Below, one piece after another: positions 2,174 to 61,704 of a stretch of DNA of 64,000 nt. This DNA comes from Okamejei kenojei (taxonomy: Eukaryota), in assembly GCA_035221665.1 (NCBI GenBank), contig CM069142.1, positions 58,094,001 to 58,158,000 on the forward strand, read 5' to 3'. Numbering within the stretch: position 1 is the first letter of the stretch; the number at the start of each line of letters is the position of its first letter. The notes beneath the pieces are model-generated. The model worked only from the letters and a program-made list of their open reading frames with translations. It ran no database searches and was not told the DNA's origin. Position numbers and translations under genes: made by a program.

Positions 2174-2201
2174 TTACTCACTGTCAGTGGGAGTCACTGA
2201 G

Positions 2202-7299: not shown

Positions 7300-7485
7300 G
7301 TTCATAAGTTCATTAGTTCACAAGTTATAGGAGCAGAATAAGGTCATTCGGCCCATCAAGTCTACTCTGCCATTCAATCATGGCTGATCTATCTCTCCCT
7401 CCTAACCCCATTCTCCTGCCTTCTCCCCATAACCCCCGACACCCATACTAATCAAGAATCTATTGATCTCTGCCTTAAAAATATC
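7300..7485 (-). mobile_element. CR1 3' tail
   Basis: (aagttcat)n tail followed by ggagcagaataaggtcattcggcccatc. Confidence 0.8.
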
Positions 7486-37609: not shown

Positions 37610-39075
37610 AATATAGAAACATAGAAAATAGGTGCAGGAGTAGGCCATTCTGCCCTTCGAGCCTGCACCACCATTCAATATGATCATGGCTGATCATCCA
37701 ACTCAGTATCCTGTACCTGCCTTCTCTCCATACCCCCTGATCCCTTTAGCCACAACGGCCACATCCAACTCCCTCTTAAATATAGCCAATGAAGTGCTCA
37801 ACTACCTTCTGTGCCAAGAATTCCAGCGATTCACCACTCTGTGTGAAAAATGTTTTTCTCATCTCGGTCCTAAAAGATTTCCCCCTTATCCTTAAACTGT
37901 GACCCCATGTTCTGGACTTCCCCAACATCGGGAACAATCTTCCTGCATCTAGCCTGTCCAACCCCTTAAGAATTTTGTGTTTCTATAAGATCCCCCCTCA
38001 ATCTTCTAAATTCTAGTGAGTACAAGCCGAGTCTATCCAGTCTTTCTTCATATGAAAGTCCTGATATCCCAGGAATCAGTCTTGTGAACCCTCTCTGTAC
38101 TCCCTCTATGGCAAGAATGTCTTTCTTCAGAATTGGAGACCAAAACTGTACGCAATACTCCAGGAGTGGTCTCACCAAGACCCTGTACAACTGCAATAAT
38201 ACCTCCCTGCCTCAACACTCAAATCCTTTTGCTATGAATGCTAACATACCATTCGCTTTCTTCACTGCCTGCTGCACCTGCATGCCTTCAATGACTGGTG
38301 TACCATGACACCCAGGTCTCACTGCATCTCCCCTTTTCCTAATCATATAACCATATAACCATATAACAATTACAGCAGGGAAACAGGCCATCTCGGCCCT
38401 TCCAGTCCGTGCCGACCATTTGTTTTCCCCTAGTCCCATCTACCTGCACTCAGACCATACCCCTCCATTCCTTTCACGTCCATATACCTATCTGGATCGG
38501 CCACCATCCAGATAATAGTCTATGTTCCTGTTTTTGTCCACATTTGTCCTCACATTTACCCACATTATACTGCATCTGCCATGCATTTGCCCACTCACCC
38601 AGCCTATCCAAGTCACCTTGCAGCCTCCTAGCATCTTGGAGATGTTGCATTCAATTCCCTCGTCCAAATCATTAATATATAATGTAAATAGCTGGTGTCC
38701 CAGCACTGAGCCTTGCGGTACCCCACTAGTCACTGCCTGCCATTCTGAAAAGGACCCGTTTACTCCTACTCTTTGCTTCCTGTCTGCCAGCTAGTTCTCG
38801 ATCCACATCAATACTGAACCACCATTACCGTGTGCTTTAAGTTTGTATACTAATCTCTTATGTGGGACCTTGTTGAAAGCCTTCTGAAAGTCCAGATATA
38901 ACACATCCACTGGTTCTCTCTTATCCACTCTACTAGTTACATCCTTGAAAAATTCAATAAGATTCGTCAGACATGATTTACCTTTCGTAAATCCGTGCTG
39001 ACTTTGTCCAATGATTTCACCACTTTCCAAATGTGCTGCTATCCCATCTTTAATAACTGACTCTAGCAGTTTCCC
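37610..39075 (-). mobile_element. CR1 LINE fragment (RT), frameshifted, with a nested CR1 3' tail at about 38345-38490
   Basis: QHGFTKGKSCLTNL, DVLYLDFQKAF and GVPQGSVLG motifs on the minus strand. Confidence 0.93.
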
Positions 39076-39400: not shown

Positions 39401-40471
39401 CTCTGAACTTGGCAGCTGGACAGATAATTTTTTTAAAATTCAGATTAAATCACTATTCTGTAACTTGCAGTTGATGCAGAGAGCACTGTGGGGAGGAATT
39501 TGCAGTAAGCGTGATGTGCTGAAATTAGTTGGTCCAGGCCTTTGTCTCACCTTTCCACCCCCCCACCAACCCATGATCATAATAAGCCCTTGCGATTTGG
39601 AACTTCCAGAGGTCCTTGTTGAAGACGGAGGGGATTGTCAGCAGAAACTGGGACAAAGGCAGCACAAAGCTCCACCGCCTGCTGTCCTGTTAACTATAGC
39701 CCACTGACCCGCTCTGCTCTATGATCTTTGCTCTTGAGCTGGTCCCCTCACTGTCCAGTCTACATTGAAAGACACGGACTGGGCAATGAATGCCATGCAG
39801 TGTCACCCAGCGCAGCAAGTGAGCCCATGTCCTGCTCCCGGCGGCTGCCGTCACCCTCCACTCCCCCAACCATTCAGTAATTCAGAATGGAGGAGATTTG
39901 GAAGCCTTGGGCAAATTGAGTTGTTACTTTCTTCATTATTATTATTATTATTATTATTTTGAGTGTTTTTTATGTCCCGCCAGCCTTCCTTCAAAATTTA
40001 GCAACTCAAAATGGGGGCGAGTCTTCATTGCCGGGAAATACGGTACTTTATTAAGAGATATGGCTTTTGAAGACAAATTACTTTATAAAAGTCGACTGAC
40101 ATCTTACGGAGAGGAGAACAATCTGCGCATGTGCAGTTTAAGATTTTTTTAAAGCCGACTGACTGCCTACCCTGAGTAATTACTCGCGGCACATGCCTGA
40201 TTACATCTATCTTAATACAAGGAATCTGATACATAAGACAGAAGAACGAAAGATGTTGATCAACACATAGGAATATTGCAACAGCAAAGACATGATTGTA
40301 AACGGTAAGACTAGCAACTCAATATTCCAGGCTGTGGAACCAACAATATAGGTGAGATCAGAAGGGGGACGTAATAATGGAAGTGACATTGAAATATGTA
40401 TAGGAATCCATTCCTGCAGAAGGCTTTGCAAGAAGAAGTATATGGATTGAATTGAGAAACAAAATAAGGGT

Positions 40472-41764
40472 TTGAAGAAGGGTCTCGACCCGAAACGTCA
40501 CCTATTCCTTTTCTCCAGAGATGCTGCTTGACCCGCTGAGTTACTCCAGCATTTTAGAAACATAGAAACATAGAAATTAGGTGCAGGAGTAGGCCATTCA
40601 GCCCTTCGAGCCTGCACCGCCATTCAATATGATCATGGCTGATCATCCAACTCAGTATCCCATACCTGCCTTCTCTCCATACCCTCTGATCCCCTTAGCC
40701 ACAAGGGCCACATCCAACTCACTCTTAAATATAGCCAATGAACTGGCCTCAACTACCCTCTGTGGCAGAGAGTTCCAGAGACTCACCACTCTCTGTGTGA
40801 AAAAAGTCTTTCTCATCTCGGTCTTAAAGGATTTCCCCCTTATCCTTAAGCTGTGACCCCTTGTGCTGGACTTCCCCAACATCGGGAACAATCTTCCTGC
40901 ATCTAGCCTGTCCAACCCCTTAAGAATTTTGTAAGTTTCTATAAGATCCCCTCTCAATCTCCTAAATTCCAGAGAGTATAAACCGAGTCTATCCAGTCTT
41001 TCTTCATAAGACAGTCCTGACATCCCAGGAATCAGTCTGGTGAACCTTCTCTGCACTCCCTCTATGGCAATAATGTCCTTCCTCAGATTTGGAGACCAAA
41101 ACTGTACGCAATACTCCAGGTGTGGTCTCACCAAGACCCTGTACAACTGAAGTAGAACCTCCCTGCTCCTGTACTCAAATCCTTTTGCTATGAAAGCTAA
41201 CATACCGTTCGCTTTTTCACTGCCTGCTGCACCTGCATGCCTACTTTCAATGACTGGTGTACCATGACACCCAGGTCTCGCTGCATCTCCCCTTTTCCTA
41301 ATCGGCCACCATTTAAATAATAGTCTGCTTTCCTGTTTTTTGCCACCAAAGTGGATAACCTCACATTTATCCACATTATACTGCATCTGCCAAACATTTG
41401 CCCACTCACCCAGCCTATCCAAGTCACCTTGCAGTCTCCTAGCATCCTCCTCACAGCGAACACTGCCCCCCAGCTTAGTGTCATCCGCAAACTTGGAGAT
41501 ATTGCCTTCAATTCCCTCATCCAGATCATTAATATATATTGTAAATAGCTGGGGTCCCAGCACTGAGCCCTGCGGTACCCCACTAGTTACTGCCTGCCAT
41601 TGTGAAAAGGACCCGTTTACTCCTACTCTTTGCTTCCTGTTTGCCAGCCAGTTCTCTATCCACATCAATACTGAACCCCTAATACCGTATGCTTTAAGTT
41701 TGTATACTGTGTCTTTTGTGTCTATCTTTGGTGTAAAACCAGCATCTGCAGTTCCTTCCTACTC
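40472..41764 (+). mobile_element. PLE terminal-repeat insertion with 14 bp TSD, split by a nested CR1
   Basis: TSD aacaaaataagggt at 40458-40471 and 41765-41778. Repeat halves lie at 40472-40555 and about 41715-41764. Confidence 0.8.
40556..41707 (-). mobile_element. CR1 LINE, 5'-truncated and young (RT C-terminus plus 3' UTR)
   Basis: ORF 40652-41668 contains VTSGVPQGSVLGPQLFTIYINDL...ISKFADDTKL. (TTTCTATG)n-type tail. Confidence 0.95.
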
Positions 41765-42154
41765 AACAAAATAAGGGTGATCAGTGTGTTTGGGATATAT
41801 CACAGATCTCCTACCATTCACTGGGTGAAAAGAAGAGCAGAGAGCCAAATAAAGCTACGTAAAATGTGTGAAAATAATAGATAAATAGTTGAAGGGGACT
41901 TCCACAATATTAACAGACATCAATTTAGTTTGAAAGGCTTTGAGTGGGGTAGAATTATTTTAATGTGTGCAGGGGAATTTTTTGAAACATGTGGATAATC
42001 CTGCAAGACTATGCAAGGTACAGGAGCTGTTATTTAAGAATGTAACCAGGCAAGTCAAGCATTGATATAATGGTGGTAGATTTCAAAGAAAGTAACTATA
42101 AATCAGTGAGTATTGTGAAGAAGGACAAGTTAGACTGGAAGTTAAGGTCCTGAA

Positions 42155-42462
42155 TTTAGTTTAGTTTAGAGATAACAGCGCAGAAATAGGCCCTTCTGCC
42201 CATCAAATCCATGCCGACCAGCGATCACTCCGTACACTTGCACTGTGCTACACACTAGGGATCATTTACAATTTTAGTGAAGCCAATTCACTTACAAACG
42301 TACATCTTTGGAGTGTGGGAGGAAACCGGAGCACTCGGAGAAAACCCACACGGTCACAGGGAGAACGTACAAACTCCACACAGACCGCACCCATAGTTAG
42401 GATCGAACCCAGGTCTCTGGCGCTGTGAGGCAGCTGCTCTACTGCTGTGCGACTGTGCCACC
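42155..42462 (-). mobile_element. V-SINE (HE1-like)
   Basis: Family match, full length. Confidence 0.88.
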
Positions 42463-42974
42463 CAGTTACATGCAAGTAAGTTTGCATATAACCAGCAGGA
42501 TTCTGTACCAACTTGTTCCTATTATAGTGAAAGACATGGTCATTGTTGTATTCAACCGTGGAGTAGGCACAATGGTCTGAATGGCCTGCTATTTATATTT
42601 AATCGATTCCTATCTTTATTGTTTCTTTCATTGTTAATGGTGACTGACTCATTTTCATTAGAACTAAAGTGCATTTGCCAAAAATAAATTGTCATCATGC
42701 CAAGTCTTAGTTGCACATGATGACACCATATAATTTAACTTGATTTTGTACAACTTTGTGAATCACTCAAGGGCTCGAAACAAATTAAAAATAAAGGAAG
42801 TCTTTTCATTCCACATACATTTGCATATTACTGCGCATTCATTGGAATGTAAAGTTGCACAAAAAACCTATTGACCACAATTTTCTGGAACATTTGGTGA
42901 ATATTTCAAATACTATTGCCTGCACCAAAGCACAAAGGTGAATATCTATTCTGGAGTAATCATGCTGGGTAAAG

Positions 42975-43282
42975 TTTAATTTAGTTTAGAGATACAGCAT
43001 GGAAACAGGCCCTTCGGTCCATCAAGTCTATACCGACCATCCATCACCCATTCACTAGATCAATGTTATCACACTTTCCCACTCCCTACACACTAGGGAC
43101 AATTTACTTAGGCCAATTAACCTACAAACCCGCATGTCTTTGGGAAGTGGGACGAAACCGGAGCACCCAGAGGATTCACTCACAAGGAGAGCATGCCAAC
43201 TCCACACAAACAGCACCCGAGGTCAGGATGGAACCCGGGTCTCTGGTGTTGTTTGGCAATAGTTCAATCAGCTGCGCCACTG
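42975..43282 (-). mobile_element. V-SINE (HE1-like)
   Basis: Family match. Confidence 0.85.
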
Positions 43283-43849
43283 AGTCGCAAAAGCTTGCAG
43301 TAACCAGACTGGATCTTTGCCATGTTCATAAGGGAACCAATCTCTTGAATGTTTCTCAGCCTGAAATGTTAATTGATTTTCTCTTTGCACAGATTATCTC
43401 TGCAATGCTGGGTACTTTCCAGAGTTAAAACAATTATTGTTATTAATAATGCAGTTTTACAAAAGTACAAATTGGCAGAATGCTGAAGCAGAGCAAAATA
43501 GATTGGTTAAACATTGATCAAAGAAAAATCAATGTGAAATAGGTTTCCGTGAAAGAGAAATAGTGTTAATGAATATAAGAAATAGATTTGTTTCTGATGA
43601 GAGAATGAGTTGAGAATTTCAAGCAGAGTCATGGTAGAAGGTGTTAATTTTACTTCAGAGTCACGTGAGTGACTACGTGAAGAACCCCGTACAGCCGTTC
43701 GTGCGTCATTACGTCAGACGCTTTCGTACAGACGACTGTGGAGCAGCGCAGCTCCTCCAACGCTGAGTCTAAAAAAGTTTCAGGTAAGTGCTATTTCTTA
43801 CCTGTTCTAGGTTTCCTTCAGGAACCTCCAGGGTTCTTGCGGGATGGTC

Positions 43850-44245
43850 GCCAGCGGTGCTCCAGCAGCGGCCCGGCTTCGGCGCTCCAGCGGCTCTCCA
43901 GCGGTGCTCCAGCGGCGGCCCGGCTTCGGGGCTTCGGCGCTCCAGCGGCTCTCCAGCGGTGCTCCAGCAGCGGCCCGGCTTCGGCGCTCCAGCGGCTCTC
44001 CAGCGGTGCTCCAGCGGCGGCCCGGCTTCGGGGCTTCGGCGCTCCAGCGGCTCTCCAGCGGTGTTCCAGCAGCGGCCCGGCTTCGGCGCTCCAGCGGCTC
44101 TCCAGCGGTGCTCCAGCGGCGGCCCGGCTTCGGAGCTCCGGCAGTTGCTCCAGCGGCGGCCCGGCTTCGGGGCTTCGGCGCTCCAGCGGCTCTCCAGCGG
44201 TGCTCCAGCGGCGGCCCGGCTTCAGAGCTCCGGCGGCTCCAGCGT
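43850..44245. repeat. GC-rich minisatellite with alternating 47/55 bp units (102 bp higher-order period)
   Basis: Repeated ctccagcggctctccagcggtgctccagc(a/g)gcggcccggcttcgg. The 34-aa period is visible in the ORF track. Confidence 0.9.
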
Positions 44246-44299
44246 TCCCGTGGTCGATCCTGATTGGGAGCTGTGGTGGTGTTCCGGCATTCCGGCAAC

Positions 44300-44600
44300 G
44301 GCGGCGGTGACGGCCTGGCTTCGGAGGCTCGGCCGCGGGCCTAGTGGACGATGACATCGAAGGCCTGGATTGCCTCAGTACAGAGGGGGAACAAGTAGGG
44401 GAAAAAGACAAAGACTTTAAGACTTTTGCCTTCCACCACAGTGAGGAGGTGCCTGGTGAACTCACTGTGGTGGATGTTAAATATGTGTTTATTGTGTGTT
44501 TTGTTTTAATTTATTACATGTTATGACTGCAATGTAACAAATTTCGTTCAGACCGAAAGGTCTGAATGACTATAAAGGAATCTGAATCTGAATCTGAATA
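44300..44600 (+). mobile_element. 3' end of a non-LTR element nested in DIRS copy 1
   Basis: Terminal stem-loop cgttcagacc-GAAA-ggtctgaatg (44545-44568), then tataaa and an (AATCTG)n tail at 44579-44600. Confidence 0.65.
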
Positions 44601-44746
44601 TGAATCCTAGGGCTTTGGGGGGAAAACCCTGGTCTGACCGCGGGAGCGGGGAGCTGGCGAATGTCGGGTTTGCAATCGGAGTCACTGATAACACGGTCAG
44701 TGACTCCACATGTTGGGTTCCCGGGGAGGGGATACCCGAGAATAGT

Positions 44747-44958
44747 GCGGTTCCAGACCGCAGTAGTCCCTAGGGGATGGGGCTTACCGGACCTGAACAG
44801 TCAGCCTAGGTTCCCGGTGGTGGGGAAACTTAACTGTATGCGGTTCCCAGACCGCAGTAGTCCCTAGGGGATGGGGCTTAACAGACCTGAACGGTCAGCC
44901 TGAGTTCCCGGTGGTGGGGAAACTAAAGTGTATGCGGTTCCCAGACCGCAGTAGTCCC
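44747..44958. repeat. Tandem repeat of about 93 bp, 2.2 copies, inside DIRS copy 1
   Basis: gcggttcc(c)agaccgcagtagtccc recurs at about 44747, 44840 and 44934. Confidence 0.85.
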
Positions 44959-47900
44959 CAAGAAATGCGGTTTAATTCACGTAAATGAGTAGCCCGGGTG
45001 CCCGGGGATTGATTCCCGGGGAGGGGAAATTCACTTATAGGGTTCCCTACCCACAATAATCCCCAGGATATGGGGACAGCTGCCAAATAAAGAAAGATTT
45101 GGTAGGTTCATCTCTGGGAATGAATTTAGAGAAAATCCTTTAGGCAGGTGGTGGATCAGTAGTAAAGTTTATGGCAATGGCAGCCTATGGCAGAAGCTGA
45201 GCCAGCAGCACCTTTGGGAAGGGCTGCATCATGGGAATGCCAAGTTACGGCAGGCTAGCCTATTGGAGAGGCTGTGCCAGCAGCACCTTTGCTCAGGGCT
45301 GCTTCATGAGAACGCCAAATCTATGGCAAATACTGGCCTATGGGAAAGGCCGCGCCAGCAGCACCTTTGTTCAGGGCTGCTTTATGGGCGCCAGCGGTAC
45401 CTACTTCAGGGCTGCTTTATGGGAATAGCTGTTTAGTAGGGTATTCCCATTTACAGTGATCATGGGGGATGAGGGGTCATTGTTAGGATGAGGCAATATA
45501 ACAGAATCTGTTAAGTCTTAAACTACATTTGAGAAATTGGGCTCCTCCATCCAGCTAGATTAAGTCTATCAAATAGACTTGTAGGATGTTGGGATTCACT
45601 TTTAGGTATTCAATTGGCTGTGATGCTGGCCTGGGCAACAGATGGCAGTCAATAAACTCTGGTAACAGGTTTACTAGTCGTTAGATTAATTGTTAATAGT
45701 ATAGATGTGATTCAGCTGTGCAAGTAAGACAACTTATCGTGTTAAATGGTTAACTATTAAGTGCCTTATAGGTCATTGTTAACACACCTTGTTTCTCCAG
45801 GTGAAATTAATAAAGTCACAAGGATGGACAAACAGTATTTGTTACTGCTCCAGTTGTTGTTAAGTAAATCTTTAATTATATTACAAAATGGTGCTAATGG
45901 CCCTAAATAGGAAATTGTGTCAGCAGTGCTTTTAGCAGGCCTGCGTAAGGTCTCCCTCATGTAGGAGGAGAGCATGCTGTGTCAGTATTATTCTGACGCT
46001 GGGGCCATGGCAAAGTCGGCGTATTGCTGAAGCTGCGCCAGCAGCACCTTGTATCAGGGCTCCTTAATGGCTCCGTCATGTAAGAGGAGAGCATGTGGGA
46101 TAGGTATAGTCTAATGCCGAGTCTGAGGGTATAGCCATAGAGAATGCCCAAGGGATTCAGGGCATGTGCCCAGAGGTCTATGCCTGGCCAGAAAGTTACC
46201 ATCCCAAACACATATGCAGTGAATACCGCTCTAAGGGGGACATTACAGTTGGCCGTCGAATCTTCTATTCAGGTAAGACCTTTCCATAGGCGAAACCTGG
46301 AGGACAAAGCACAAGCTATTGGAACGAGCAAGTTTTCATAGTTTTGGTGATAATGCACCCCACGTCTTTATTGACAGTAAGCGGTTCACTGAAGTTGGTG
46401 GCAGCATGAAGGCTGGCCACAGGTTCCACGCACTGTACCTGTGCTACTCTACAATTAAGGGACCACTTACAGCTTGGTAAGGTGTACAGTTAGTTATACA
46501 TTACGAATGATTGAGACATTCTCAGCTAATTTGAGGGGTCTAATCATGTAAAATGGTCTGTTCTAGCTTTTCAAGCAGGTTAGAATTGCGCAGGTTCAGT
46601 AGAAGGACCAAGATTGTCTTACAAGACCGGTTCGGAAATCGGGCCACAGTTGCTGTTTACGGCAGATACCAAGTTGCAAATATCATCTCAAGTTTGGAGG
46701 TGGAGCAGATTTGCATGATTTGCAAAAAAATGTCTGTTGTGGGTATCAACTATCTATAGACCCTACGGGCATCGTATGGGTTAAAGAGTGATTGGACAAA
46801 TGTGCATATTGTGATGCTCAGGTTGATACATTATGATGATGGCATATGTTAGTCACGAGGGTGCAATCAGTTAAAGACCCACGGAATGGTTACATATCTT
46901 GTTGTCACAGGAGAATCAGAAGTATAGGTTAATGGCAACACAGAATTGGTGTTGAATTACACTATATTATGAAATTCTGGTTAATGGAGCACCTAACATG
47001 GTTTCATGTTTATTTCACTGGTTGCAAAATATGTGGCATTACAGTGGCGAAACATACATTTTCGCTAAAAGGAGTAGGAAGGACTTTTATGACTCCCTCC
47101 ATTTTGTTTATCAATTGAGGTTTCAAATAAAGTCATTAAGAGGCCACTTAAGGTTCCTATTGAGTGATTATGCAAATTGATTCCTGATTTGTCGCAAATA
47201 ATATAACCTTATTTGGTTATTTTAAATGTAATTTGCTGGTTCAGCCCGAGACTTGGAAAATCAGTTGTTGCATGATAAACTCAAATTATGTTCTGCAGGT
47301 TTAATAAACTGCCCTAAGGTTTTGGTTGTTACATCTATCCTTCTATGTGTTCAAAGTGCTTGCATAGCACCAAACTGCAGAATTTTCTTTTCCAGGAGAT
47401 GAAAGAGTTTGTTATGCTTATGTTCCATGGAAAATGTTATTGATTGCTAATGTTTCGGGTTCATGCTAAATGATTGTTTGTTAATTATGGAGTTACACGG
47501 CCATTAATTGGGTTATCAAGGGGTAGGATATCTTCAACATGGTTCCCAGGACCAATATAATGCCATATGCGATGTTGACATTTGTGAACACTATTTCACC
47601 AGGAGGCTGCAGCTATATCCTTAAATTTGGCTAGAGTTTATTAGGTAGTTATCCTTCTGGCACTGGTTTATGCAGCAGGTTCAGTCGCTACATAATTGTG
47701 ATGGTACAGGATGATAATGTCTGTAAATTATAATATATAATATTATGTTATAAATACTTGAGCAGACCAGAAGGGGGTCAGGTCTCAAAATAGTCACAGG
47801 CACACCAGGGGACCTTTGATAAGGTAAGCACACATATATACAACAATATGTCAAGGTCATCAAGAGCCTTGGAGTTCTGGACTAGCAATGTTGTTAGTCA

Positions 47901-48660
47901 CAAAAGATAAATAAATAATTTGGGAGATTATTGTTCAGGCCATTCCAGATGATAAAAACAGATTTGTGTTATGTACTAATGGATTCTGATTCCATATCTC
48001 ATTACACCAGGGCTGCTACAATATCAGCAGCAGGGGTATTTATGTTCCGCTGGGTCACATTGTTACAGCTGCAGCATGGTCAAATGAACGAATCTCCAAA
48101 CATCTGTAATGACCCATTGCTGAACCAGGGTTATTTGTTAACTCTGTTCTGGTTATGTTTTCCATCTGGGTGAGAGATGGAAATATTATTGTTTCATTTA
48201 AACAGCATCAGCATGTTTTACATCTATGTTATGCCTGTATGCATTATGAATGTTTTCCCTTCATTTGTCAATGAAGCAGGTGTGGTTGTGTACACTCGTT
48301 TCACATGGCATGAAATCACAGAGCTTCGAAGTCTTCACGAAGTCACTCACATGACTCCGAAGTAAAATAATAAGATTAAATGAGAACTTACCAGTTTGAA
48401 GTTTGATCTTCATTTTATGAGGAGTCGAGTTGAGGGACTACGTGCCCTCCGCTCTCAGCCCTCATAGATCTCATCTGGTAGTTCTAGTCTTTGTTATCTT
48501 ACCATTATACTTCAGTCATTATTATCTGTGATTTCACACCATTGCTATGAGGATTGACGCACGAATGGCTGTACGGGGTTCTTCACGTAGTCCCTCAACT
48601 CGACTCCTCATAAAATAAAGATCAAACTTCAAACCGGTAAGTTCTCATTTAATCTTACTA

Positions 48661-51581
48661 TTTTACTTCGGAGTCACATGAGTGACTACATGAAGAAGGC
48701 CGTCAGCCCACATGTGCGTCATTATGTCTAGCGCATTGCGCAACGACTGACTGGCTGGCGCGCTGCTCCTGCCAGCGGTAAGTTTAAACCGGCAAGGTAA
48801 GTTTAAAACTTATTTCTAGGTTTTGTTTTTTGTGTTGCAGGAAGCTCCTTATAGAGTTTGCCTGCTGGATTCGGGACTAAGTCGGACGGGCCGCGGGGAA
48901 ACCGGTTATGGATCGTGGGGAGATCCCGGACAGTGGAAACGCGGGTAGCCTGCGGCCTTCGGGTTTGTTTCCCAAGTCGCTGACAAGGAGGTCAACGACA
49001 CCCAGAAGGGGAGTGCGAGTGGTGGTTCCCCAAGAAAGGGGGTAGACCAAGAGAAAGCTATGGTTCCCCCAGAAAAGGGGTAAAACTGGTAGTAAGCCGG
49101 TCTCGCCACCGAGTCACTGACAGTGCGGTCAGTGGCTCCCAGACAGCTATGGTTCCCCAGAGACGGAGCCAAACCATGTGGAAGCCGGTCAGGCCTTGGG
49201 ACTCGGGCGAGTTGGGCCAGGAGGGTTCCCCTCCTTCAATGGGTAGCATCTACGGACGCCTAAACCCACATGGAGCACCTGATGGAGCGGTGTTCCGCAA
49301 TGTTTTACTCCAAAGGAGGGAGTTATTAGCGCGAGTCTCCTCGGGGGGTCCCGCGGCAGCGGCACCTGTTTTCAGGGCTGCACAATGTCTCCCTCTCTGA
49401 GGAGGGGAGCATTCGGGGTCAGTTTCAGTCTGACCCAGAGCAAAAATCCTGATATAGGTCCGAAGGATGGGCCATGTCAGCGCAGGTATCCTCGGGTAGT
49501 GGAGGGGAGTGTGAATAAATACTCGCAAGCGAAGGGGTTACTGCCAGAAGAATTGGTTCCAGCCGTATGCAGAAAACCCAGAAGGGACCAGAGTTTCCCT
49601 CGTGCTACAAGTGCCGGTAGTGAACAGAGCTATCAGGGGTAACATTGGAGGGGGCATGAAATCCAGGAAATGAAACCAGCGCCGAATCTTCTCTTCAGGT
49701 AAGACTTATCCAACAGGTATACCTGGATGAGGAAGCAAGCTTCATTGTATCGGCGACGACACCCCCCACGCCTCATCAGCAGTAAGCAGTTCACTGAAGC
49801 TGGTGGCAGCTTGGAAGCTGGGCAGAAGTCTTTCAGGCCAAGGCCCAAGCAGGTCTCAGGAAATATGGAATCCACATACACTACCATTCCTACTCTCCAA
49901 TCAAGGAGGGGAATAAAACCCACATCAGGGGCCTTTGGGCTTACCATAAGACTACCGGTAACCATGGAGGTAGGTGGGTCTGGTTCTTCCGAAACATGGG
50001 ATAAGTGGACCATTTACAAGTTGGTAATATTTACACTTGTTTTTGTACAAATGACAATGATAACATGAGATTCAGATCAATTATATACTAAAATATATAT
50101 CTCGGACTGGAAGGGCCGAGAGGGCCTGTTTCCGTGCTGTAATTGTTATATGGTTAAAATGATAACATGGGATGGGTTATTATTGCACCCAGAAAAAAGC
50201 AGTACATTGCCTCTTCAGGAGATGGGAAGCGTTCTGTTTAAATGCTATGTTACATATAATACGGCATTGACACTGACATCTTAGAGTTAATTTTCTGATG
50301 GGTCCTTGACAATAAATTCATGTTAGAGTCCCATTAACTGTGCCCAACGTGCTTCTCATCATATTTGCTGCAGCGAGCGGGACCCGCTCTGCCGGGTCTC
50401 ACCCTCTGATGTCCAGTTTATTAAGGATATCTTTACCACAAGATCTCCCAGACCCAAGTACACGGAAGTATGAGATATTGACATTGTGTTAACACTTCTT
50501 CACCACGGGGCTCCAGCTGTATCCCTATCTTTGGCTCGGTTCTCATAAGGTAGTTATCCCCCTGGCGCTGTCCTCAGCGCACAGGTCCAGTCATTACATA
50601 AATTGCAACTGGACAGGATGGTTATACCTGCTGTATATAATATTTCATGTTTACGATTTAGTTAACCTGGCAGCCCAGGGGTGTCGGGTCTCAAGCTAGT
50701 TCTCATGGCATACCCCATGCACCTTCGGTTATGTGTGGTCACACATTTACAACATTGCGTCAAGGTCATCTAGAGCCTTAGAGGCTCTGATACTAGCTAT
50801 GTTAGTTAGTTACAAAAAACCTCATAAGAAGGTATCAGTTCAAACCATCTCCAGGTGGTTAATACGGGGTTTTGGCTTATACAGGAGTAGATACTAATTT
50901 TCTAATCTCACTCCACCAGGGCTGCTACAACATCAGCAGCAAGGGTTATGTGCGGTCCTCTGGACCACATCCTGCCGACTGCAGGATGGTCTAACGAGGT
51001 TTCCAACATTTTATTTTAACCCATTGCCAGACCAGGGGTATTTGCCAAGTCTATTTTAGATTCTAATTTGTAGTTTCCCCTCGGATGAGAGGGGTACTGT
51101 TATTATTATTTGTTCATTTATCAGCAGCATGTTTTAAATCTATGTCATGTCTGAATGCATTATGAATGTTTCCCTTATATTTGGTCAACTGATGCAGTCG
51201 TGCTTGTGTGGACTCGTTTTTCCACAGCATGAAATCACAGCTTTAAAATCTTCACGTAGTCACTCACGTGACTCCGAAGTAAAATAGTAAGATTAAATGT
51301 GAACTTACCAGTTTGAAGTTTGATCTTTATTTTATGAGGAGTTACAATGAGCGATTACATGCCCTCCACTCCCAACCCTCGTATCATAAAGATCATCTGG
51401 TAGTTCTAGTCATCTCTAATCGTACTATATTAGTTCAACAACTGTTATCTATGATTTCACACCGCTGCTTTGAAGATTGACGCGCATGCGGGCTGACGGC
51501 CTTCTTCACGTAATCGCTAATCGTAACTCCTCATAAAATAGATTGAACTTCAAACTGGTAAGTTCTCGTCTAATCTTACTA
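48661..51581 (+). mobile_element. DIRS1-type retrotransposon, internally deleted, second subfamily (copy 2)
   Basis: Left ITR 48661-48721, ICR about 51249-51361, right ITR 51478-51581. YR motifs: GSHPLM..., PRPKYTEV, LALSSAHR, SYKKPHKKVSVQTISRWL and HSTRAATTSAA...LDHILPTAGWSN (from 50909). Confidence 0.88.
50380..51020 (+). pseudogene. Decayed tyrosine recombinase ORF of DIRS copy 2
   Basis: Catalytic-region motifs R...HSTR...GW typical of DIRS YRs, disrupted by stops and frameshifts. Confidence 0.8.
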
Positions 51582-52076
51582 TTAATGATGAATGATAGGT
51601 TTCATCAAGTTCAATCAATGGGACCTAAACAGGCCAGCTATCAAAATTGTAAAAAAACATTTTTTTTCCTGACATTTAAGAATGTTCTTAAGCTAGGGAT
51701 GTGGGGAAAATATGAGAATTGAATTTTAGCTTTGTACAGGAAAGTATTGAACTGTGGAACTGTCTTGAAGAGTTGACTGGCTGATCTCGGACAACTAGGG
51801 ACTGTGCCCATTCACAGAGGCAAAGACTGAGAAGTGAGGTGCTGCCTCTTCAAGCCCAAAGCTGAGCTGCTAGGATAAGCCTGAGACTGCCATCACCTGC
51901 TCTCAAGGCAAGGGTGAACTGCAGGGAGAAAGCTGAAGTTCCTCCTTCAAGACCAGGACTGAGCTGTCGCCTGCCGGGACAAGCCTGCGATCACCAACGT
52001 CACCACTCGTGCACTCTGACAATGAGAGACCGTTCCCCCACGTGGTCCTGGACTCTTGTCACTTTAAATAAAGCAT

Positions 52077-52312
52077 GGGTGGCGCAGTGGTAGAGTTGCT
52101 GCCTTACAGCGTCAGGGACCTGAGGTCAATAATGACCACAGGTGCTATCTGTACAGAGTTTGTGTGTTCTCCCTGTGAGATGGGGGTTGGTTAATTGTGT
52201 TTGGTTAGATTATAAATTGTCCCTTGTGTGTAGGATAGTGATAGTGCCAGTGATCAATGGTCCGTGTGGTCTCGGTGTGCTGAAGGGCATGTTTCTGCAC
52301 TGTCTCTCTAAA
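52077..52312 (+). mobile_element. V-SINE (HE1-like), internally deleted
   Basis: ggtggcgcagtggtagagttgctgccttacagcg. Confidence 0.8.
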
Positions 52313-52735
52313 GTCAGATCATGTGAGTTCACTCTACTGCGAGCGTCGGTGTGGTCATTGCCAAACTTGGCGTCACCCCCAACACCATAGTTGTAACAAT
52401 TATATAATTATGTAGAATGGAGGCTTCTGATCCCAACAGTCAAGGACTTATAGATTTGCAGTAGGTTAAGTGTGGAAGTTGAATTAAGCAAAAACAAAGA
52501 AAAGGATGGAAGATCTGAGGAATATTTGTCTCAGAACAGCTTCTCTTCATTTTCCAAATGTACAACAAGAGACATCAGATTGACTGGATTAGCAATAAGG
52601 CGTCAAACTAATCTGTCAGAAGACTCAAGAAAAAATGATTAAAGTGTTGCAAATTGTGAAGGTGGGGGTTTGATGAGGTGTGAATTGTATAGCTAGGGAA
52701 GGAGTGAAGGGGAGAGATAGTTACAAGGTCAGCAG

Positions 52736-52798
52736 CAAAGATCTTAGAGCGGAGCTTTTTCACGGAGTGAACCATCTTGCTCCACTCTAAGATCTTTG
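52736..52798. mobile_element. 63 bp miniature TIR element (CAAAGATCTTAGAGCGGAGC termini)
   Basis: 20 bp inverted termini with one mismatch. A related end in reverse orientation lies at about 58636-58680. Confidence 0.6.
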
Positions 52799-52928
52799 GG
52801 TTGAACATTGAATTCTGCAACTTTAATTAACATCGACAAAATTCCCTCCATTCCCTTTCTCCCCAATAAACCCCCCTCCCCACCCCCCCTTCCTTTATTT
52901 CATATGCCCCTCCCTTCCCTGAGCCCCC

Positions 52929-54364
52929 NNNNNNNNNNNNNNNNNNNNNNNNNNNNNNNNNNNNNNNNNNNNNNNNNNNNNNNNNNNNNNNNNNNNNNNN
53001 NNNNNNNNNNNNNNNNNNNNNNNNNNNNNNNNNNNNNNNNNNNNNNNNNNNNNNNNNNNNNNNNNNNNNNNNNNNNNNNNNNNNNNNNNNNNNNNNNNNN
53101 NNNNNNNNNNNNNNNNNNNNNNNNNNNNNNNNNNNNNNNNNNNNNNNNNNNNNNNNNNNNNNNNNNNNNNNNNNNNNNNNNNNNNNNNNNNNNNNNNNNN
53201 NNNNNNNNNNNNNNNNNNNNNNNNNNNNNNNNNNNNNNNNNNNNNNNNNNNNNNNNNNNNNNNNNNNNNNNNNNNNNNNNNNNNNNNNNNNNNNNNNNNN
53301 NNNNNNNNNNNNNNNNNNNNNNNNNNNNNNNNNNNNNNNNNNNNNNNNNNNNNNNNNNNNNNNNNNNNNNNNNNNNNNNNNNNNNNNNNNNNNNNNNNNN
53401 NNNNNNNNNNNNNNNNNNNNNNNNNNNNNNNNNNNNNNNNNNNNNNNNNNNNNNNNNNNNNNNNNNNNNNNNNNNNNNNNNNNNNNNNNNNNNNNNNNNN
53501 NNNNNNNNNCCACCTTCCCTCCCCCCCCCCCCCCCCCCCCTCCCTCTCCCCCCCTCCCTACGCCCTCCTCACCCATCCCCCCCCTAACCCCCCCCCCCTC
53601 CCCCCTCCTCCCCCCTGCCCCCCCATCAACCATCCCCCCCTCCCCCCCCCCCCCCCGCCCCCCCCCGTCCTCCCCCACTCCCTGTTCACCCTCCCCCCCC
53701 CCCGATACCCCCGCCCCCCCCCCCCCCCCCCCTCCCCCCCCCGTCCCCCCCCGCCCCCCCCCGCATCCCCCCGCCCCCCCCCCCACCCCCCGCCCCCCCC
53801 CCTCCCTCTCCCCTCCGCCCCCNNNNNNNNNNNNNNNNNNNNNNNNNNNNNNNNNNNNNNNNNNNNNNNNNNNNNNNNNNNNNNNNNNNNNNNNNNNNNN
53901 NNNNNNNNNNNNNNNNNNNNNNNNNNNNNNNNNNNNNNNNNNNNNNNNNNNNNNNNNNNNNNNNNNNNNNNNNNNNNNNNNNNNNNNNNNNNNNNNNNNN
54001 NNNNNNNNNNNNNNNNNNNNNNNNNNNNNNNNNNNNNNNNNNNNNNNNNNNNNNNNNNNNNNNNNNNNNNNNNNNNNNNNNNNNNNNNNNNNNNNNNNNN
54101 NNNNNNNNNNNNNNNNNNNNNNNNNNNNNNNNNNNNNNNNNNNNNNNNNNNNNNNNNNNNNCCCTCCCCTCCCCCCCCCCACCCCCCCTCCCCCCCCCCC
54201 CCCACCCCCTCCCCCTCCCCTCCCCCCCCTCCCCCCCCCCCCCCCCCCCCCCCCCACCCCGCGCCCCCCCACCCCCCCGCCCACCCCGTCCCGCCCCCCC
54301 ACCCTCCCCCCCCCCCCCCCCCCCATCCCCCCCGCCCCCCCCCCCCCTCCCACCCCTCCCCCCC

Positions 54365-54422
<58 letters not shown>

Positions 54423-55231
54423 CTCCACCCCCCCCCCCCCCCCCCCTCCCGCCCCCCCCCTCCCCCCCCCCCCCCCCCTCCCCCCCCCCCCCTCCCCCCC
54501 TCACCTCCCCCCCACCCCCCCCCCCCCCACACCCCCCCCCCCCCCCCCCCCCCTAAACACCTTCCCCCCCCCTTCGACCCCCCCCACCCCCCCCCCCCCC
54601 CCCCTCCCTCACCCCCCCCCCCGCCACCCCCAACCCTCCCTCGCCCCCCCCCCCTCCCCCCCCCCTCCCCTCCCCCCCCCCCCACTCAAACCCCCCCCCC
54701 CCCCCACCCCCCTCCACCCCCCCCCTTCCACCCCCTCCCCCCGACTCCCCCCCTCCCCCCCTCCCCTCCCGCCCGCCCACGTCCCGCCCCCCCACCCTTG
54801 CCCACGCCCCCCCCCCCCCCGCTCCATCCCCACCCCCCCCCCCCCCGCCCCCCCCCCCCCGACCCCACCCCCCCCCCCACCCCCACCTCCCAACCCCCCT
54901 CCCCCCCCCCGGACCCCCTCCCGCCCCCCCCCCCCCCCCCCTACCCCCCCTCCCCCCTCCCGCCCCCCCCCGACCTTCTCCCCCCCTCCCCCAATAAACC
55001 CCCCTCCCCCGCCCCCCCCCCCCCCCCCCCCCCAGCCCCCCCCCTCCCCGCCCGTCCCCCCCGCGCCCCACCCCCCCCCACCCCACACCCACCCCTCGCT
55101 CCCCCACCCCCCCCTATCCTCCTACCCCCCCCCCCCCTCACGGAACCCCCCACCCCCCGCCCCCCCCAATACCCCCCCCCCCCCCAGCCCCCCCCCCACC
55201 GCCCCCCCTACCCCGCCCCTCCCACGACCTC

Positions 55232-55263
<32 letters not shown>

Positions 55264-57826
55264 AACCCTCCTCAACCCCCCCCCCCCCCCCCCCCCCGCC
55301 CCTCCCCCCCCCCACCCAAACCCCCCTCCGCCCCCACGGTCACCATGCCACCCCCCGCCCCCTCCGCCTCCCCCCCCCCCCCTCCCCCCAACCCCCCCCC
55401 CTCCCCTCCCCACCACTCCCCCCCCCCGCCCCCCCCCCCCCCCCCCGCCCCGCCCCCCCCCTCCCCCATCGCCCCCACCTCCACCTACCTCCCCCACCNN
55501 NNNNNNNNNNNNNNNNNNNNNNNNNNNNNNNNNNNNNNNNNNNNNNNNNNNNNNNNNNNNNNNNNNNNNNNNNNNNNNNNNNNNNNNNNNNNNNNNNNNN
55601 NNNNNNNNNNNNNNNNNNNNNNNNNNNNNNNNNNNNNCCCCCGCCCTACTCCCCCCANNNNNNNNNNNNNNNNNNNNNNNNNNNNNNNNNNNNNNNNNNN
55701 NNNNNNNNNNNNNNNNNNNNNNNNNNNNNNNNNNNNNNNNNNNNNNNNNNNNNNNNNNNNNNNNNNNNNNNNNNNNNNNNNNNNNNNNNNNNNNNNNNNN
55801 NNNNNNNNNNNNNNNNNNNNNNNNNNNNNNNNNNNNNNNNNNNNNNNNNNTCCCCCCCCCCCCCCCCTCCCTCCCCCCCATCCCCCCACCCCCGCCCCCC
55901 CCCCCCCCCCCCCCCCCCCCCTCCCCCCCCCCCACCCCCCTCCCCCTCCCCCCCCCCCTCCCCCCCCACCCCCCCCCCCCCCCCCCCCGCTCCCCCCCCC
56001 CCCCCCCCCCCCCGCCCTCCTCCCCCCCCCCCTCCCCCCCCCCCCACCGCCCCCAACTCCCCCCCCCCCCCCCCCCCCCCCCCTCCCCCCCCCCCCCCCC
56101 CTCCCCCCTCCCCCCCCCCCCCCACCCCCCCCCCCCCCCACCACTCCCTCTCCCCCATCCTGCCTCCACCTCCCGCCCCCCCCCCTGCCTCCGCCCCCCC
56201 CCACCCCCCCCCCCCCCCCCTCCCCCCCCCCCTCCCCCCCCTCCATGCTCCACCCCTCCTCCCCTCCCCCCCCCCCCCCCCCTGTGAGCGCCCCCCCCCT
56301 GGTCACCGGCTCCCCCCACCCGCCCCCCCCCCCCCCCCCTCCTCCCCCCCCCCCCTCCCCCCCCCCCCTCCCCCCCCCCCCCCTCCCCCCCCCCCCCTCC
56401 CCCCTCCCCCCCCCTCCCCCTGCTCCNNNNNNNNNNNNNNNNNNNNNNNNNNNNNNNNNNNNNNNNNNNNNNNNNNNNNNNNNNNNNNNNNNNNNNNNNN
56501 NNNNNNNNNNNNNNNNNNNNNNNNNNNNNNNNNNNNNNNNNNNNNNNNNNNNNNNNNNNNNNNNNNNNNNNNNNNNNNNNNNNNNNNNNNNNNNNCCCTC
56601 CCGCCCCACTCCCCCCCACCCCCCCCCCTGCCCCCCTCCCCCCCCCCCCCCCTCCCCCCGCCCCCCCCCCCCCCCCCCCCTCCCCCCGCCCCCCCCCCCC
56701 CCCCCCCCCTCCCCCCCCCGCACCCCCCCCCCCCCCCATCCCCCCCCTCCTCCCCCCCCCCCCCCCGCCCCCCCCCCCGTCCCCCTCCCATATACGGTCC
56801 CCCCCCCNNNNNNNNNNNNNNNNNNNNNNNNNNNNNNNNNNNNNNNNNNNNNNNNNNNNNNNNNNNNNNNNNNNNNNNNNNNNNNNNNNNNNNNNNNNNN
56901 NNNNNNNNNNNNNNNNNNNNNNNNNNNNNNNNNNNNNNNNNNNNCCCCCCCTCCCCACTCCCGCCCCCACCCCCCCTCACCCCGCCCCCCCCGCCCCCCC
57001 CCCTACCCCCCCCCCCCGCCCCCCACCCCCCACCCCTCCCCCCGTTACGCCGCCCTCCCCGACCTCCCCCCCTCTCCGCCCCCCCCACCCCCTTCCCCCT
57101 CCCCCCTCCCCCCCGCAGACGCTCCCCCCCCGCCCCCCCCCCCCCCGGCCCCCTGCCCCTGGGGGGTGACCCCCCTACCCCCCAGCCACCCCCCCCCACA
57201 CCCTGCCCCGGGCCCCTCCCCCCCCAACCCGACCCCCCCCCCCCCCCTCCCCCGCTGCCGGGCGCCCGCCGGCCCGGCCCTCCACCGGCCGAGCCCCCCC
57301 TCTCATACCTCGCGCCCCCGGCCCCGCCCGCCCCCCCCCCCCCCACCTCCCCCCCCAGCCCCGCCGCCCCCCCCTCCCCTCACCCCCCAGGCCCCCCCCG
57401 CCCCCCCCCCTCCAATAAGAATAGCGCCCCCCCCCCCCCCCCCACCCCCCTAAGCACTTCCCCGCCCACCCCCGTGAGCCAAAAAACCCCCCCCCCCCCC
57501 CCCCCCCCCCCCAGCTCTCCCCCGCCCCCCCGAGGACCCCCTTGCCCCCGCCCCCCCGCCCCTCCAGCCACCCCCCCACCCCGGCCCCCCCACCCCCCCC
57601 CCCCCCCCTCCCCCCCCCCCCCCGCCCCCCACTGCCCCCGGCCCCCCTCCGCCCGTTACCCCCGCCTCCTGAACCTGCCCCCCCCGTGCCCCCTCCCCCT
57701 CCCACGCCGCCCCCCCCCGCTCCCTCCACCACCCAAGCTCCCCCCTCCCCCCGCCCCACCCCCATTCCCACCCCCCCGCCCCGCCCCTCCACCCCACCCC
57801 CCCACCCCCGCACCCCCCCCCCTCCC

Positions 57827-57863
<37 letters not shown>

Positions 57864-58590
57864 TACGCCCCCCTCCCCCCCCCCCCCCCCCCCCACCCCC
57901 CCCCCCCCCCCCCCCCCTCCCCCGACTCCCACCCCGGGCTCCCCCCTCCCGGCCCCCCTCCCCCCCGCCCCCACCCCCGCCCGCCCGTCGACCCCACACA
58001 CTGCCCCCCCCCCACCCCACCCCCCCCCCCCCCCCCTCCCCCCCCCCACCCCCCCCCGCCTCCCCCCTCCCCCGCCCCCCCACCCCCCACCCCGCCCCAC
58101 ACGATAGCCCCCCTCCCTCCCGCCCTCCCCGGCCCCCCCCACTCCCCCCCCCTCCCCGCCCGTCCCCCCCCCCCCGGGCCCCGCCCCCATCCACCCCCCC
58201 CCCTCACCACCCCCCCCCCCCCCCCCCCCGCTCCCCACGGCCAGCCCCCGCCCTCCCCTCCCCCGGCCTCCCACCGCCCCCCCCCGCCCCCCCCCCGCCG
58301 CACCCGCCCCCCCCCCCCCCCCCCCCCCCCCGCGCCTCCCAGCCCCAGCCCGCCCCCCCACCACCCCCCCCCCCCCCCCAGCGCCCAACCGCCCCCCCTC
58401 CCGTCCGCCCCCTCCCCCCCCCCCGCCCCCGGCCCCCCCCCTCCTCCCCCCCCGCCCCCCATCCCCCCGCCCCCCCGCGTCCCCCCCCCCCCCCGGCTCC
58501 CCCCCCCCTCCAAGCCCCCCCCCCCCCCCCCCCCCCCCCCTCCCCCCCCATCCCCCCCCTCCCCCCACCCCCCCCCCCCCCCCCCCCCCC
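52929..58590. other. Assembly gaps (N runs) and low-quality poly-C sequence
   Basis: Six N blocks separated by almost pure C. The same 36 bp sequence appears on both sides. Confidence 0.9.
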
Positions 58591-59116
58591 TTCCTTTATT
58601 TCATATGCCCCTCCCTTCCCTGAGCCACTGCTGACCAAAGATCTTAGAGCGGAGCAAGATGGTTCACTCCGCGAAAAAGCCGTAGTAGCTGATGGGTAAT
58701 CTTCAGCGACATTCCCGTAACCGGCTTCTGTCATGGCGGCGTCATCTACAAGCGGAGCGTACTGATCCGCTATAATGGCAGGGTTCTTCGTCATTCCATT
58801 TCGTAAATGCAGCAGTTCCACACTTTAATTCTTTGTTTTAATGTATAAGTGCTCTAACAATAGTAAGAAAGACTGCGGTAATTAAAACTATCGGAATTAC
58901 TTTGGCGGCACCTCTGCGATTCATCTCCTGTACATTCCACCCCCCCTGAATATTTTATCTGGGGTTTTAGACTGAGCTAATCTTGCAGAGGGTTGACGGA
59001 TTTTCCTTGCTAAAGGATTACCTGCGACTTAACAAAACCTCAAATCCTCTGTATGCTGGATCAGACATAACTCAGGGTATTTCTTCGATCTTCATGATGA
59101 TGTACCTTAATGTCAA

Positions 59117-59279
59117 GGATAGACACGAATAGCGGGAGTAACTCAGCGGGTCAGAAGAAGGGTCTCGACCCGAAACGTCGCCTGTTCCTTTTCTCCAGAG
59201 ATGCTCTCTGACCCGCTGAGTTGCTCCAGCTTTTTTTGTCTATCTTCTGTTTAAACCAGCATCTGTAGCTCCTTCCTAC
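59117..59279. mobile_element. Fold-back PLE-terminal short element with 13 bp TSD
   Basis: TSD accttaatgtcaa at 59104-59116 and 59280-59292. Confidence 0.85.
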
Positions 59280-59585
59280 ACCTTAATGTCAATATGTTTC
59301 CAAATTTATTGAGTGCAATGTTATCCATTCCCATTTTTTTGTTTCAAAGCTTCTCAGCGTGTGATTACCAAATTGCAGACAATTTTGCCAAATTTCAGGC
59401 TACCATTGTGTTGTGAACTTATGACTGTACTCTGTACCTGTCCGATCCATGTACCTGTCTAAATGTTTCTTAAAAGTTACGATATGCAAAAAAAGGTTGC
59501 CGACCCCTGGACTAAACCAAACCATTGATCCTGTCACGCCAGCCTTTGTGTTCATTGATATTTTATTCACAATATTAGGATTTCA

Positions 59586-61392
59586 CTAGACCAAGTGCAG
59601 ACCCACTGGGTCTGTTCCCCCCAACGCTCGGTGGGGGGGGGGGGGTTGCTGCGGCTTCACAGGCACACTGACCACCCCCCACACACACGGGGGGAGGGGG
59701 TAGGGGGAGATGGGGTGGGCGAGGGGAGGGAGGGGAGACTGCTGGGTCCCATTCCCTCAACGTGCAGTTGCTGGGGGGGGGGGGGGCTGCGGCTTCACAC
59801 GCACACTAACCCACCTGCCATACACATGGGGGGGGGGCGAGAGGAATGGGAAAGGGGGGAGGGAGGAGGAGGAGGAGGAAAAAGAGGGGGGAAGTGAGGA
59901 GGGTTGCAAGAGAGTAGAGGGGAGATAGGAGATGGGGAGGTGGGAGAGGGGGGGGAGAGATGAGAGGAGGGGGAGTGGGGAGAGCGGGGAAAAGGGAGGG
60001 GGTAGAGGGGAGGGTGGAGGAGGGGAGATGAGAGGGAGAGAGGGTGGTGGGGAGGAGAGCAGGGAGGGGGAGGGGAGGAGAGCAGGGAGGGGGAGGGGAG
60101 GGAGGAAGGAGCAGATGGGGAGAGGGGATTTGAGGAGAGGGGGAGATGGAAAAGGGGAAGAGAGGGGTGAGGAGAGAGGTGGAGGAGGAAGGGTGGACTT
60201 GGGGAGGGGAGGACAGGGCGAAGGGAGAGAGCGGGGGAGGGAGCAGGGAGGGGGAAATGGGGAGAGGGGGTAGGGGTAGTAAAGCTGGGGGAGGGGATAT
60301 GAGAGTGGTGGGGAGGGGTGGAGAGAAGGGATGGAGAGGGGAGAGATGGGAGGGGGAGGGAGAGAGTGGGGGGGGGGAGGGGGGTAAGAGGTGGAGAGAG
60401 ATTGGAGGGAGAGAGGAGAGAAGGGGGAAAGGCAGGGGGTGGGAGGGGAAGGGAGAGAGAGAGATTAGAGGGGACATTAGAGAGAGTAGAGCGGAGAGAG
60501 ATTAGAGGGGAGGGGCAGGATGGGGAGGAGAGGGGAGGGTGGAGAATAAGAGGGGGAGGGGGCAGATTGGGGTAGGGGTACGGAGAGAGGGTGGTAAAGG
60601 TGGGGGGAGAGGAGGAGAGGGGGAGGTGGAGAGAAATTGGAGGGCGAGAGGGGTGAGGGGGAGAGAGTAGAGGGGGGTAGAGGGAGGGGGTGAGGGGGAG
60701 GGAGGAGAGTGGAGGGAGAGAGAATATGGGGAGTTGGAGGAGGAAAGAAGAGGTGGAGGAGGAGGGCAGAAGAGGTGGTGGAGGGGGGAGAGAAGAGGAA
60801 GGGGAGAAGTGAAGGGGGAGAAGAGGAGGGTATGGAGGAGAGGAGGATGGAGAGGGGAGAATAAGAGTGGTAGAGGGGAAGAGGGAGGGGGTAGGACAAC
60901 TTGCTCCATTTGATCTTGATTGTGCGCCAGACCACGTGACGGCTCCAATCTCCCCACCTGTCCCATTGTGATGACATTTGTAAATGAGATCCATTGTGAT
61001 TGTATATCTGTGAGATGGCTCTGTGGCTCATGTCACTGTTTGATTTTAGTGGGGGCACCTGAAGGTTCCAATCTCCTAGCCCTGTCCCATTGTGATGTCA
61101 TAACATAGGTAAATGAGATCCATTGTGATTGGACATCTGTGAGATGGCGCTGTGACTCATGCAGCAGCTTGATTTTAAGTGTTTTGATGTTTTTTTACAA
61201 AAAAGCAGGGAAATTAATAACCAAATGTTCTAATTTTCAAAACAAAATGTGGAGGAGGAAAAACTCTACAGGAATATGAAAAAAATTCTCCATTACGGCA
61301 AAGGGTGGAGGAGTAAATGCACAAACAGCTTAAACTAATTTTCGTGAAATAGAACCCGTTACAAACCAACAAACCAAGGACAGCTTTAATAG
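59586..61392 (-). mobile_element. Non-autonomous Helitron-like element with an internal purine-rich tract
   Basis: On the minus strand the 3' end is hairpin cagaccc-agt-gggtctg followed by ...CTAG|T. The far end reads actattaaagctg. A second copy's 3' end begins at 61396. Confidence 0.6.
59830..60892. repeat. G/A-rich low-complexity polypurine tract
   Basis: About 1 kb of nearly all G and A on the + strand. Confidence 0.9.
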
Positions 61393-61704
61393 TTACTAGA
61401 CCAAGTGCAGACCCGTTGGGGGGGGGGGGGGGGGGGGGGGGTACTGCGGCTTCACACGCACACTAACCAACCCCCACACATTCTGGGGGGGAGGGGGTGG
61501 TGAGAGTGGGGGGAGATGGGGAGATGGGGAGATGGAGAGGGGGAGGTGATGGGGAGAGATTGGGGATGGGGAGGAGTGAGGGGAAGGGGGAGAGAGGGAG
61601 ATAGGGTGGGAGGCGGTGAAGGGGGAGGGTGAGAAGGGGGGGAGGGAGAGAGAGGGAAGAGAGGGAGAGATAGGTTGAATGAATTAATGAATATATATAT
61701 ATAT

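Follow-up and report, generated by a model that had tools for sequence, protein, structure and literature searches.

The window analysed here is a 64,000-nucleotide (nt) stretch of Okamejei kenojei DNA (GCA_035221665.1, contig CM069142.1, positions 58,094,001 to 58,158,000, forward strand), and at 43647-51583 on its + strand it carries two decayed retroelements of the DIRS1-like type, E1 (43647-48662) and E2 (48660-51583), which lie head to tail and overlap in a single ATT at 48660-48662. We conclude that the locus is a precise tandem of two DIRS1-like copies that lack reverse transcriptase (RT), with a verified empty site. The layout is given below in window positions; X1, X8, X16 and X19 are runs from related organisms.

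43647..48662, + strand: E1 (copy 1), 5,016 nt, a decayed DIRS1-like element, RT not detected.
48660..51583, + strand: E2 (copy 2), 2,924 nt, an internally deleted DIRS1-like element of another subfamily, RT not detected.
43224..43646, no strand: left flank, mostly low-copy, which adjoins the right flank in the empty allele (X1 record 1, 0 differences; X16 record 9; X19 record 16; X8 record 23).
51584..51870, no strand: right flank, which comes after the single ATT in the empty allele (X1 record 6, 0 differences; X16 record 9; X19 record 16; X8 record 28).
43647..43649, + strand: left ATT core.
48660..48662, + strand: ATT core common to both copies at the head-to-tail junction.
51581..51583, + strand: right ATT core, at the E2 end.

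Each copy has its own inverted terminal repeats (ITRs) and its own internal complementary region (ICR), as follows.

43647..43708, + strand: E1 left terminus and ITR; the first 37 nt are complementary to ICR1, and 43666-43708 to 48555-48597.
48555..48662, + strand: E1 right ITR and right extension, ending in ATT.
48332..48444, - strand: ICR1, the reverse complement of the E1 circle junction, with 6 differences in 113 nt.
48660..48721, + strand: E2 left terminus and ITR; 48678-48721 is complementary to 51478-51521.
51478..51583, + strand: E2 right ITR and right extension, ending in the ATT at 51581-51583.
51249..51361, - strand: ICR2, the reverse complement of the E2 circle junction.

It can be seen that the DIRS1-like ITR and right extension are present in both copies, and that each ICR is complementary to both outer ends of its copy, with halves that overlap in an AAT/ATT trinucleotide. 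The subfamily-specific interiors of the ITRs pair within each copy (43666-43708 with 48555-48597 in E1, 95% over 43 nt; 48678-48721 with 51478-51521 in E2, 86% over 44 nt), and pairing across copies is weaker (71% over 41 nt for the left end of E1 with the right end of E2). Since the ITR/ICR set is self-consistent in each copy, two separate founders are needed. The 5' parts of E1 and E2 are homologous to each other, and across the 3' 1.2 kilobases (kb) the copies are only 73% alike, so that one is not a simple duplication of the other. The first-pass annotation of this DNA had described a head-to-tail tandem of two different DIRS elements, joined at a circle-junction sequence with a shared ATT, and had argued from the distinct ITR interiors against simple duplication; both points are borne out by the separate ITR/ICR sets, the one ATT at a perfect junction, the within-copy pairing and the level of identity just described.

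Over 113 nt, the central junction (48584-48696) shows 94% complementarity to ICR1 and 89% to ICR2. A 23-nt word from this junction has three matches in the window, at 48651-48673 (+ strand, exact), at 51272-51294 in ICR2 (- strand, exact) and at 48355-48377 in ICR1 (- strand, one mismatch), just as had been claimed for the centres of the two ICRs, and none of 100 shuffles (0/100) reached three matches. E1 and E2 agree at 86% over the final 49 nt of their right ends, and in all four left-end and ICR copies the first 37 nt show at most 3 differences from the matching ICR. With their outermost letters so nearly shared, both subfamilies could be bound by one recombinase, and on this comparison use of the termini across subfamilies is plausible.

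Contigs of four of the 24 listed runs, representing four organisms, were aligned to positions 43000-52500 (X1, organism A; X8, organism B; X19, organism C; X16, organism D). One 682-nt contig of organism D (X16 record 9) runs through 43219-43646 and then 51581-51804 with zero letters between, and one 1,188-nt contig of organism C (X19 record 16) runs through 43239-43646 and then 51581-51804, again with zero letters between. The pre-insertion site carries a single ATT and there was no target duplication; the empty site that had been reconstructed from the ATT shared by the flanks, without a target-site duplication, is seen in two of the three other organisms. Organism A has both outer junctions with 0 differences (43224-43672 and 51556-51870), on contigs that reach 26 and 28 letters into the elements, below the 31-letter bridging rule, and the central junction was spanned by no contig among the pieces listed (a further 393,083 pieces and 1,963 joints lie outside this set). 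The right flank of organism B is preceded by 22 letters that belong to a DIRS right end (X8 record 28), and the left contig ends at 43645 with 27 letters unaligned (X8 record 23); the site is probably occupied. Given this right end, at least one element is probably older than the split between A and B. Substitutions in the flanks amount to 5.0% in C, 5.3% in D and 3.6% in B. The two halves do not always occur together as one composite element: X16 record 14 contains an E2-type left end that starts at 48660 and is preceded by 53 unaligned letters, without E1.

A tyrosine recombinase (YR) lies before the ICR in both copies, in each case as a remnant only.

47673..48151, + strand: E1 tyrosine-recombinase remnant, heavily decayed and in two frames (profile E 3.8e-4 and 2.4e-4; best control-region match E 3).
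50321..51064, + strand: E2 tyrosine-recombinase remnant with HSTRA and AGW motifs, stops and frameshifts (profile E 4e-43).

The profile used here was built from recombinase open reading frames (ORFs) of related DIRS loci. When the E2 frame at 50201-51100 (X at stops) was used as query, 10 homologs were found (best E 6e-33), nine of them with PF00589, while one E1 frame yielded no homolog in the same kind of search and a direct Pfam scan of 15 frames yielded 0 families. No remnant of RT, RNaseH or methyltransferase was detected in E1 or E2 when 227 ORFs from related loci were run against them by tblastn, the matches being in the YR region only; a pol profile run on both copies gave at best E 0.038 over 27 residues, and for a gag-like ORF1 there was no match to ORFs of related loci. 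E1 and E2 are best read, from what their sequences retain, as RT-less, non-autonomous derivatives of DIRS1-like elements and not as complete members.

In the published DIRS model, as set out in the relevant part of PMC3266345, the ICR restores both ends, and a circle with a 3-nt junction recombines with the same genomic trinucleotide without duplication; ATT is the commonest terminal trinucleotide. The copies described here resemble the DIRS1-like retrotransposons of the DIRS order in that part of the account in having inverted termini, a right extension, ATT at both ends, a 3' tyrosine recombinase and no target duplication, and the ICR halves that overlap in the 3-nt junction measure 37 + 79 nt, compared with 36-60 + 56-89 in the animal DIRS1-like elements listed there. 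They differ from complete elements in that both are decayed without a remnant of RT, RNaseH or methyltransferase, and E2 is only 2.9 kb. Integration by a recombinase at ATT is well supported.

The anatomy, the ATT cores and the empty site are observed, and from the published model we take the circle intermediate and the recombinase step. Each element would have been copied to cDNA, with its ends restored from the ICR and joined as a circle with ATT at the junction, and the tyrosine recombinase would have been supplied in trans by an intact relative. The first circle would recombine with an ordinary ATT of the genome, so that the inserted element would have ATT at either end without duplication, and each end would consist of an element arm on one side and host DNA on the other. 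The second circle, of the other subfamily and with near-identical outer terminal letters, would then recombine with one of the regenerated ATT ends, which would probably be somewhat preferred because one recombinase-binding arm is already present, and this insertion would rebuild a full circle junction between the copies. The two steps, the supply in trans and the end preference are what we infer; we put the chances of sequential insertion with a preference for the regenerated end at about even. The first-pass annotation had gone further, to site-specific insertion into the terminus of the other element as att-like self-targeting that builds arrays. From this, integration at ATT by a recombinase and the empty site stand, but insertion into an end as opposed to a dimer, preference as opposed to one ATT among many, and arrays (there are two units here, and 0 true tandems among the 40 ends surveyed below) are not shown. 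For DIRS-1 itself, the portions of PMC7192593 that bear on this report that the ICR is required for retrotransposition and that the target specificity of DIRS recombinases is without experimental test.

Other DIRS loci were surveyed in 78 related metagenome loci, which yielded 28 resolved left ends and 25 resolved right ends; those with less than 20 nt of flank, 5 in all, were dropped, and after filtering there were 21 left and 19 right distinct flanks, or 40 ends. Thirty-eight of these are not in tandem, their best matches to a partner half being 8-13 of 20. The other two read through a perfect junction, in contigs (L035 and L040) that are more than 99% identical to their own reverse complement, and these are assembly fold-backs through the ICR. 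The survey bounds the tandem rate near 8%, for a sample drawn from other hosts and with a bias against tandems. DIRS termini give rise to misassemblies of a characteristic kind, which look like circle junctions; separately, contig L020 seems to pass from ICR into left-ITR interior at 1760-2200. The same junction layout was found in 21 distinct junctions among the 78 loci (19-30 of 37 positions matching), a result that also speaks for use of the termini across subfamilies but is partly circular, since the motif was drawn from the window and the junctions were selected by it. Across L001-L078 the layout GGTAAG, then TTTAA, six letters and ATT recurs in many DIRS families, and the left cores are ATT or GTT, mostly with A before, which suggests a slightly longer effective core in the surveyed families. 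A search of metagenome contigs with the 23-nt junction word gave 0 matches, and in viral contigs no relatives were detected with the YR profile.

Several observations weigh against sequential insertion with end preference. No single-element allele was seen in the four runs, and neither of the ICRs, each a complete junction-like site, is interrupted. The flanks of the first insertion are no closer to the circle arms than approximately 1,790 background ATT sites (background fraction 0.12-0.82); as the empty site is no more arm-like than a random ATT, no arm is needed for insertion. Self-targeting by DIRS-1 is described as 'without apparent sequence preference' in the section of PMC5633606 that treats it. 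When changes of CpG type are left aside (hand classification), terminus and ICR differ at 4/113 positions in E1 and 3/111 in E2, and the ages of the copies do not differ within error. There were 0 true tandems among the 40 distinct ends of other loci. A rough chance model (ATT on either strand at 4.2% of positions, assumed genome sizes 2.2-3.5 Gb) gives approximately 1 expected tandem per genome at 10,000 copies and 6-10 at 30,000, and our tandem is a single event, picked by a scan that favours striking cases, which leaves room for chance.

Three candidate lines of evidence were rejected. Pseudo-att similarity of the empty site fails with the flanks lying within the ATT background. Insertion order was sought from age, for which all differences between terminus and ICR (6/113 in E1; 10/111 and one indel in E2) give Fisher p 0.31, and from abundance, where an excess of E1-type sequence in A and B was gone after the E1/E2 body-depth ratio was considered (A 1.31, B 2.6, C 1.22, D 1.26), contig depth not being copy number.

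An end state identical to that of sequential insertion would be reached in one step, if a two-element circle, either two circles joined at their junctions or an older tandem copied as a unit, integrated once at ATT and the second junction stayed intact between the copies. The indistinguishable ages of E1 and E2 and the four runs free of a single-element allele are in keeping with this, and circle junctions, which hold both arms, should be each other's best partners. However, two different non-autonomous cDNA circles would be required in one germ cell, E2-type ends are known without E1 (X16 record 14), and full-length DIRS-1 cDNA is mostly linear with circles rare, according to the part of PMC7192593 that deals with it. 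We consider such a one-step origin unlikely.

Insertion in two steps with no preference, the second element having used the ATT at the end of the first as one of approximately 100 million genomic ATT sites, appears more doubtful again. In its favour, the first insertion needed no arm similarity, the model expects approximately 1-10 tandems per genome for 10,000-30,000 copies, the survey returned none in 40 ends, and terminal bins are far deeper than the element bodies, which hints at many copies although it is not a copy number. Set against this, the chance of a given copy landing in such a tandem is only approximately 0.01-0.2% (10,000-100,000 copies), a rate that on this model even modest targeting, of 1-2%, would outweigh, and the 40 ends come from short-read contigs of other hosts, which are prone to break at tandems.

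Least probable is an assembly artefact, in which one element sat on the site and the assembler crossed from its right end into another copy via junction words supplied by the ICR. Such folding at this node is seen in the >99% mirror-image contigs L035 and L040 (2/78 loci), N gaps and, from approximately 52.9 kb, low-complexity sequence with a G/C skew occur in the window, and no listed contig spans the central junction. But two wrong jumps would be needed, since the flanks adjoin each other in the empty allele and X1 has both outer junctions exact; the known bad contigs continue into a reversed ICR whereas the window enters a true left-ITR interior, whose pairing partner is the right ITR of its own copy; and the 8 kb tandem is without N.

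The tandem has partial counterparts elsewhere. DIRS-1 of Dictyostelium inserts into its own copies (PMC7192593 and PMC5633606, in the passages concerned), and hot spots of fish DIRS1 are ascribed to homing in the corresponding passages of PMC5941688 and PMC6387122, the statement on Danio in PMC5941688 resting on a Dictyostelium paper and a review. In all of these, as here, an older copy of the same kind of element has been entered or joined by a new one; those cases, as far as the passages go, are nested insertions or clusters seen by fluorescence in situ hybridisation, whereas here the terminal ATT is the exact point of insertion, both copies are whole and two subfamilies are involved. The tandem is a variant of known DIRS self-insertion, exact at the terminal ATT. 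TATE of Leishmania braziliensis is likewise a tyrosine-recombinase retroelement in tandem, but its direct repeats are split and it occupies a fixed position in telomeric hexamers, with neither an ICR junction nor a unique genomic site (PMC6681497, relevant sections). Tandem prophages (PMC8112680) and tandems of phages with integrative and conjugative elements (ICEs; PMC13651849) are, in the sections concerned, similar in that integration regenerates att-like ends which can be used again, giving head-to-tail heterologous tandems; they differ in being bacterial DNA elements with long specific att sites, in place of a 3-nt core, no arm similarity at the first target and passage through RNA. End-to-end tandems are not described in the portion of PMC3266345 that covers DIRS, and the portions seen of PMC9341512 and of the Xenopus account (10.1101/2021.08.05.455354), which gives TTT at both ends of DIRS, mention none. 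Our literature search turned up no description of heterologous DIRS tandems joined exactly end to end; key DIRS work of Goodwin and Poulter lies outside its coverage and may describe them, and we make no claim of absence.

Two further features lie within the copies.

50056..50169, no strand: insertion in E2, 102 nt, with a 12-nt target-site duplication (50056-67 and 50158-69).
43851..44606, + strand: GC-rich minisatellite and a segment ending in (GAATCT)n, inside E1; minisatellite at 43851-44244 with periods 47/55/102, (GAATCT)n at 44578-44606.

Contigs of related organisms skip the E2 insertion area (joints 50043-50156 and 50088-50155), and 54 nt of the insertion match window positions 38356-38409 at 96%; it is probably the tail of a non-LTR (long terminal repeat) repeat, judging by this match. 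Contig depth jumps in bin 44268-44584 of E1, and the minisatellite and (GAATCT)n segment is possibly a separate inserted repeat. The minisatellite bin has a depth of 226,000 in X1 and 2,000-8,000 in the three other runs, a hint of lineage-specific expansion. The 5' part of E1 also contains short tandem duplications at 44746-45005 and 45182-45423 (94-nt and 75-nt units).

Around the tandem, the SINE-like repeats of the flanking DNA make the host look like a cartilaginous fish. Approximately 1.2 kb to the right, at 52800-61500, lies low-complexity sequence with a strong C/G skew and six N runs, which probably arose as an artefact of sequencing or assembly. At 43383-43517, to the left of the insertion site, an acceptor-like AG is followed by a 41-codon open frame, in low-copy flank that is present in relatives. 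An exon at 43392-43517 was rejected as a candidate, one weak match to a five-stretch protein (E 5.5e-5) giving no evidence of a gene. Rfam gave 0 matches on 40000-52800.

For the model of DIRS integration at a trinucleotide without duplication, the locus offers a clean example from nature, with the empty allele in two relatives. If DIRS termini are not enriched as targets, the tandem would be a rare by-product of a very abundant family. If they are enriched, the clustering of DIRS elements would gain a sequence-level explanation and the binding arm of the recombinase would become mappable. A broader reading, which we offer tentatively and hold to be the less probable outcome, is that DIRS termini act as portable att sites across subfamilies, with a conserved arm that draws the recombinase, so that RT-less derivatives from different subfamilies build up into ordered head-to-tail arrays in the manner of prophages and ICEs. 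Should this be true, it would provide both a sequence-level cause of the 'homing' clusters of vertebrate DIRS and a natural map of recombinase recognition.

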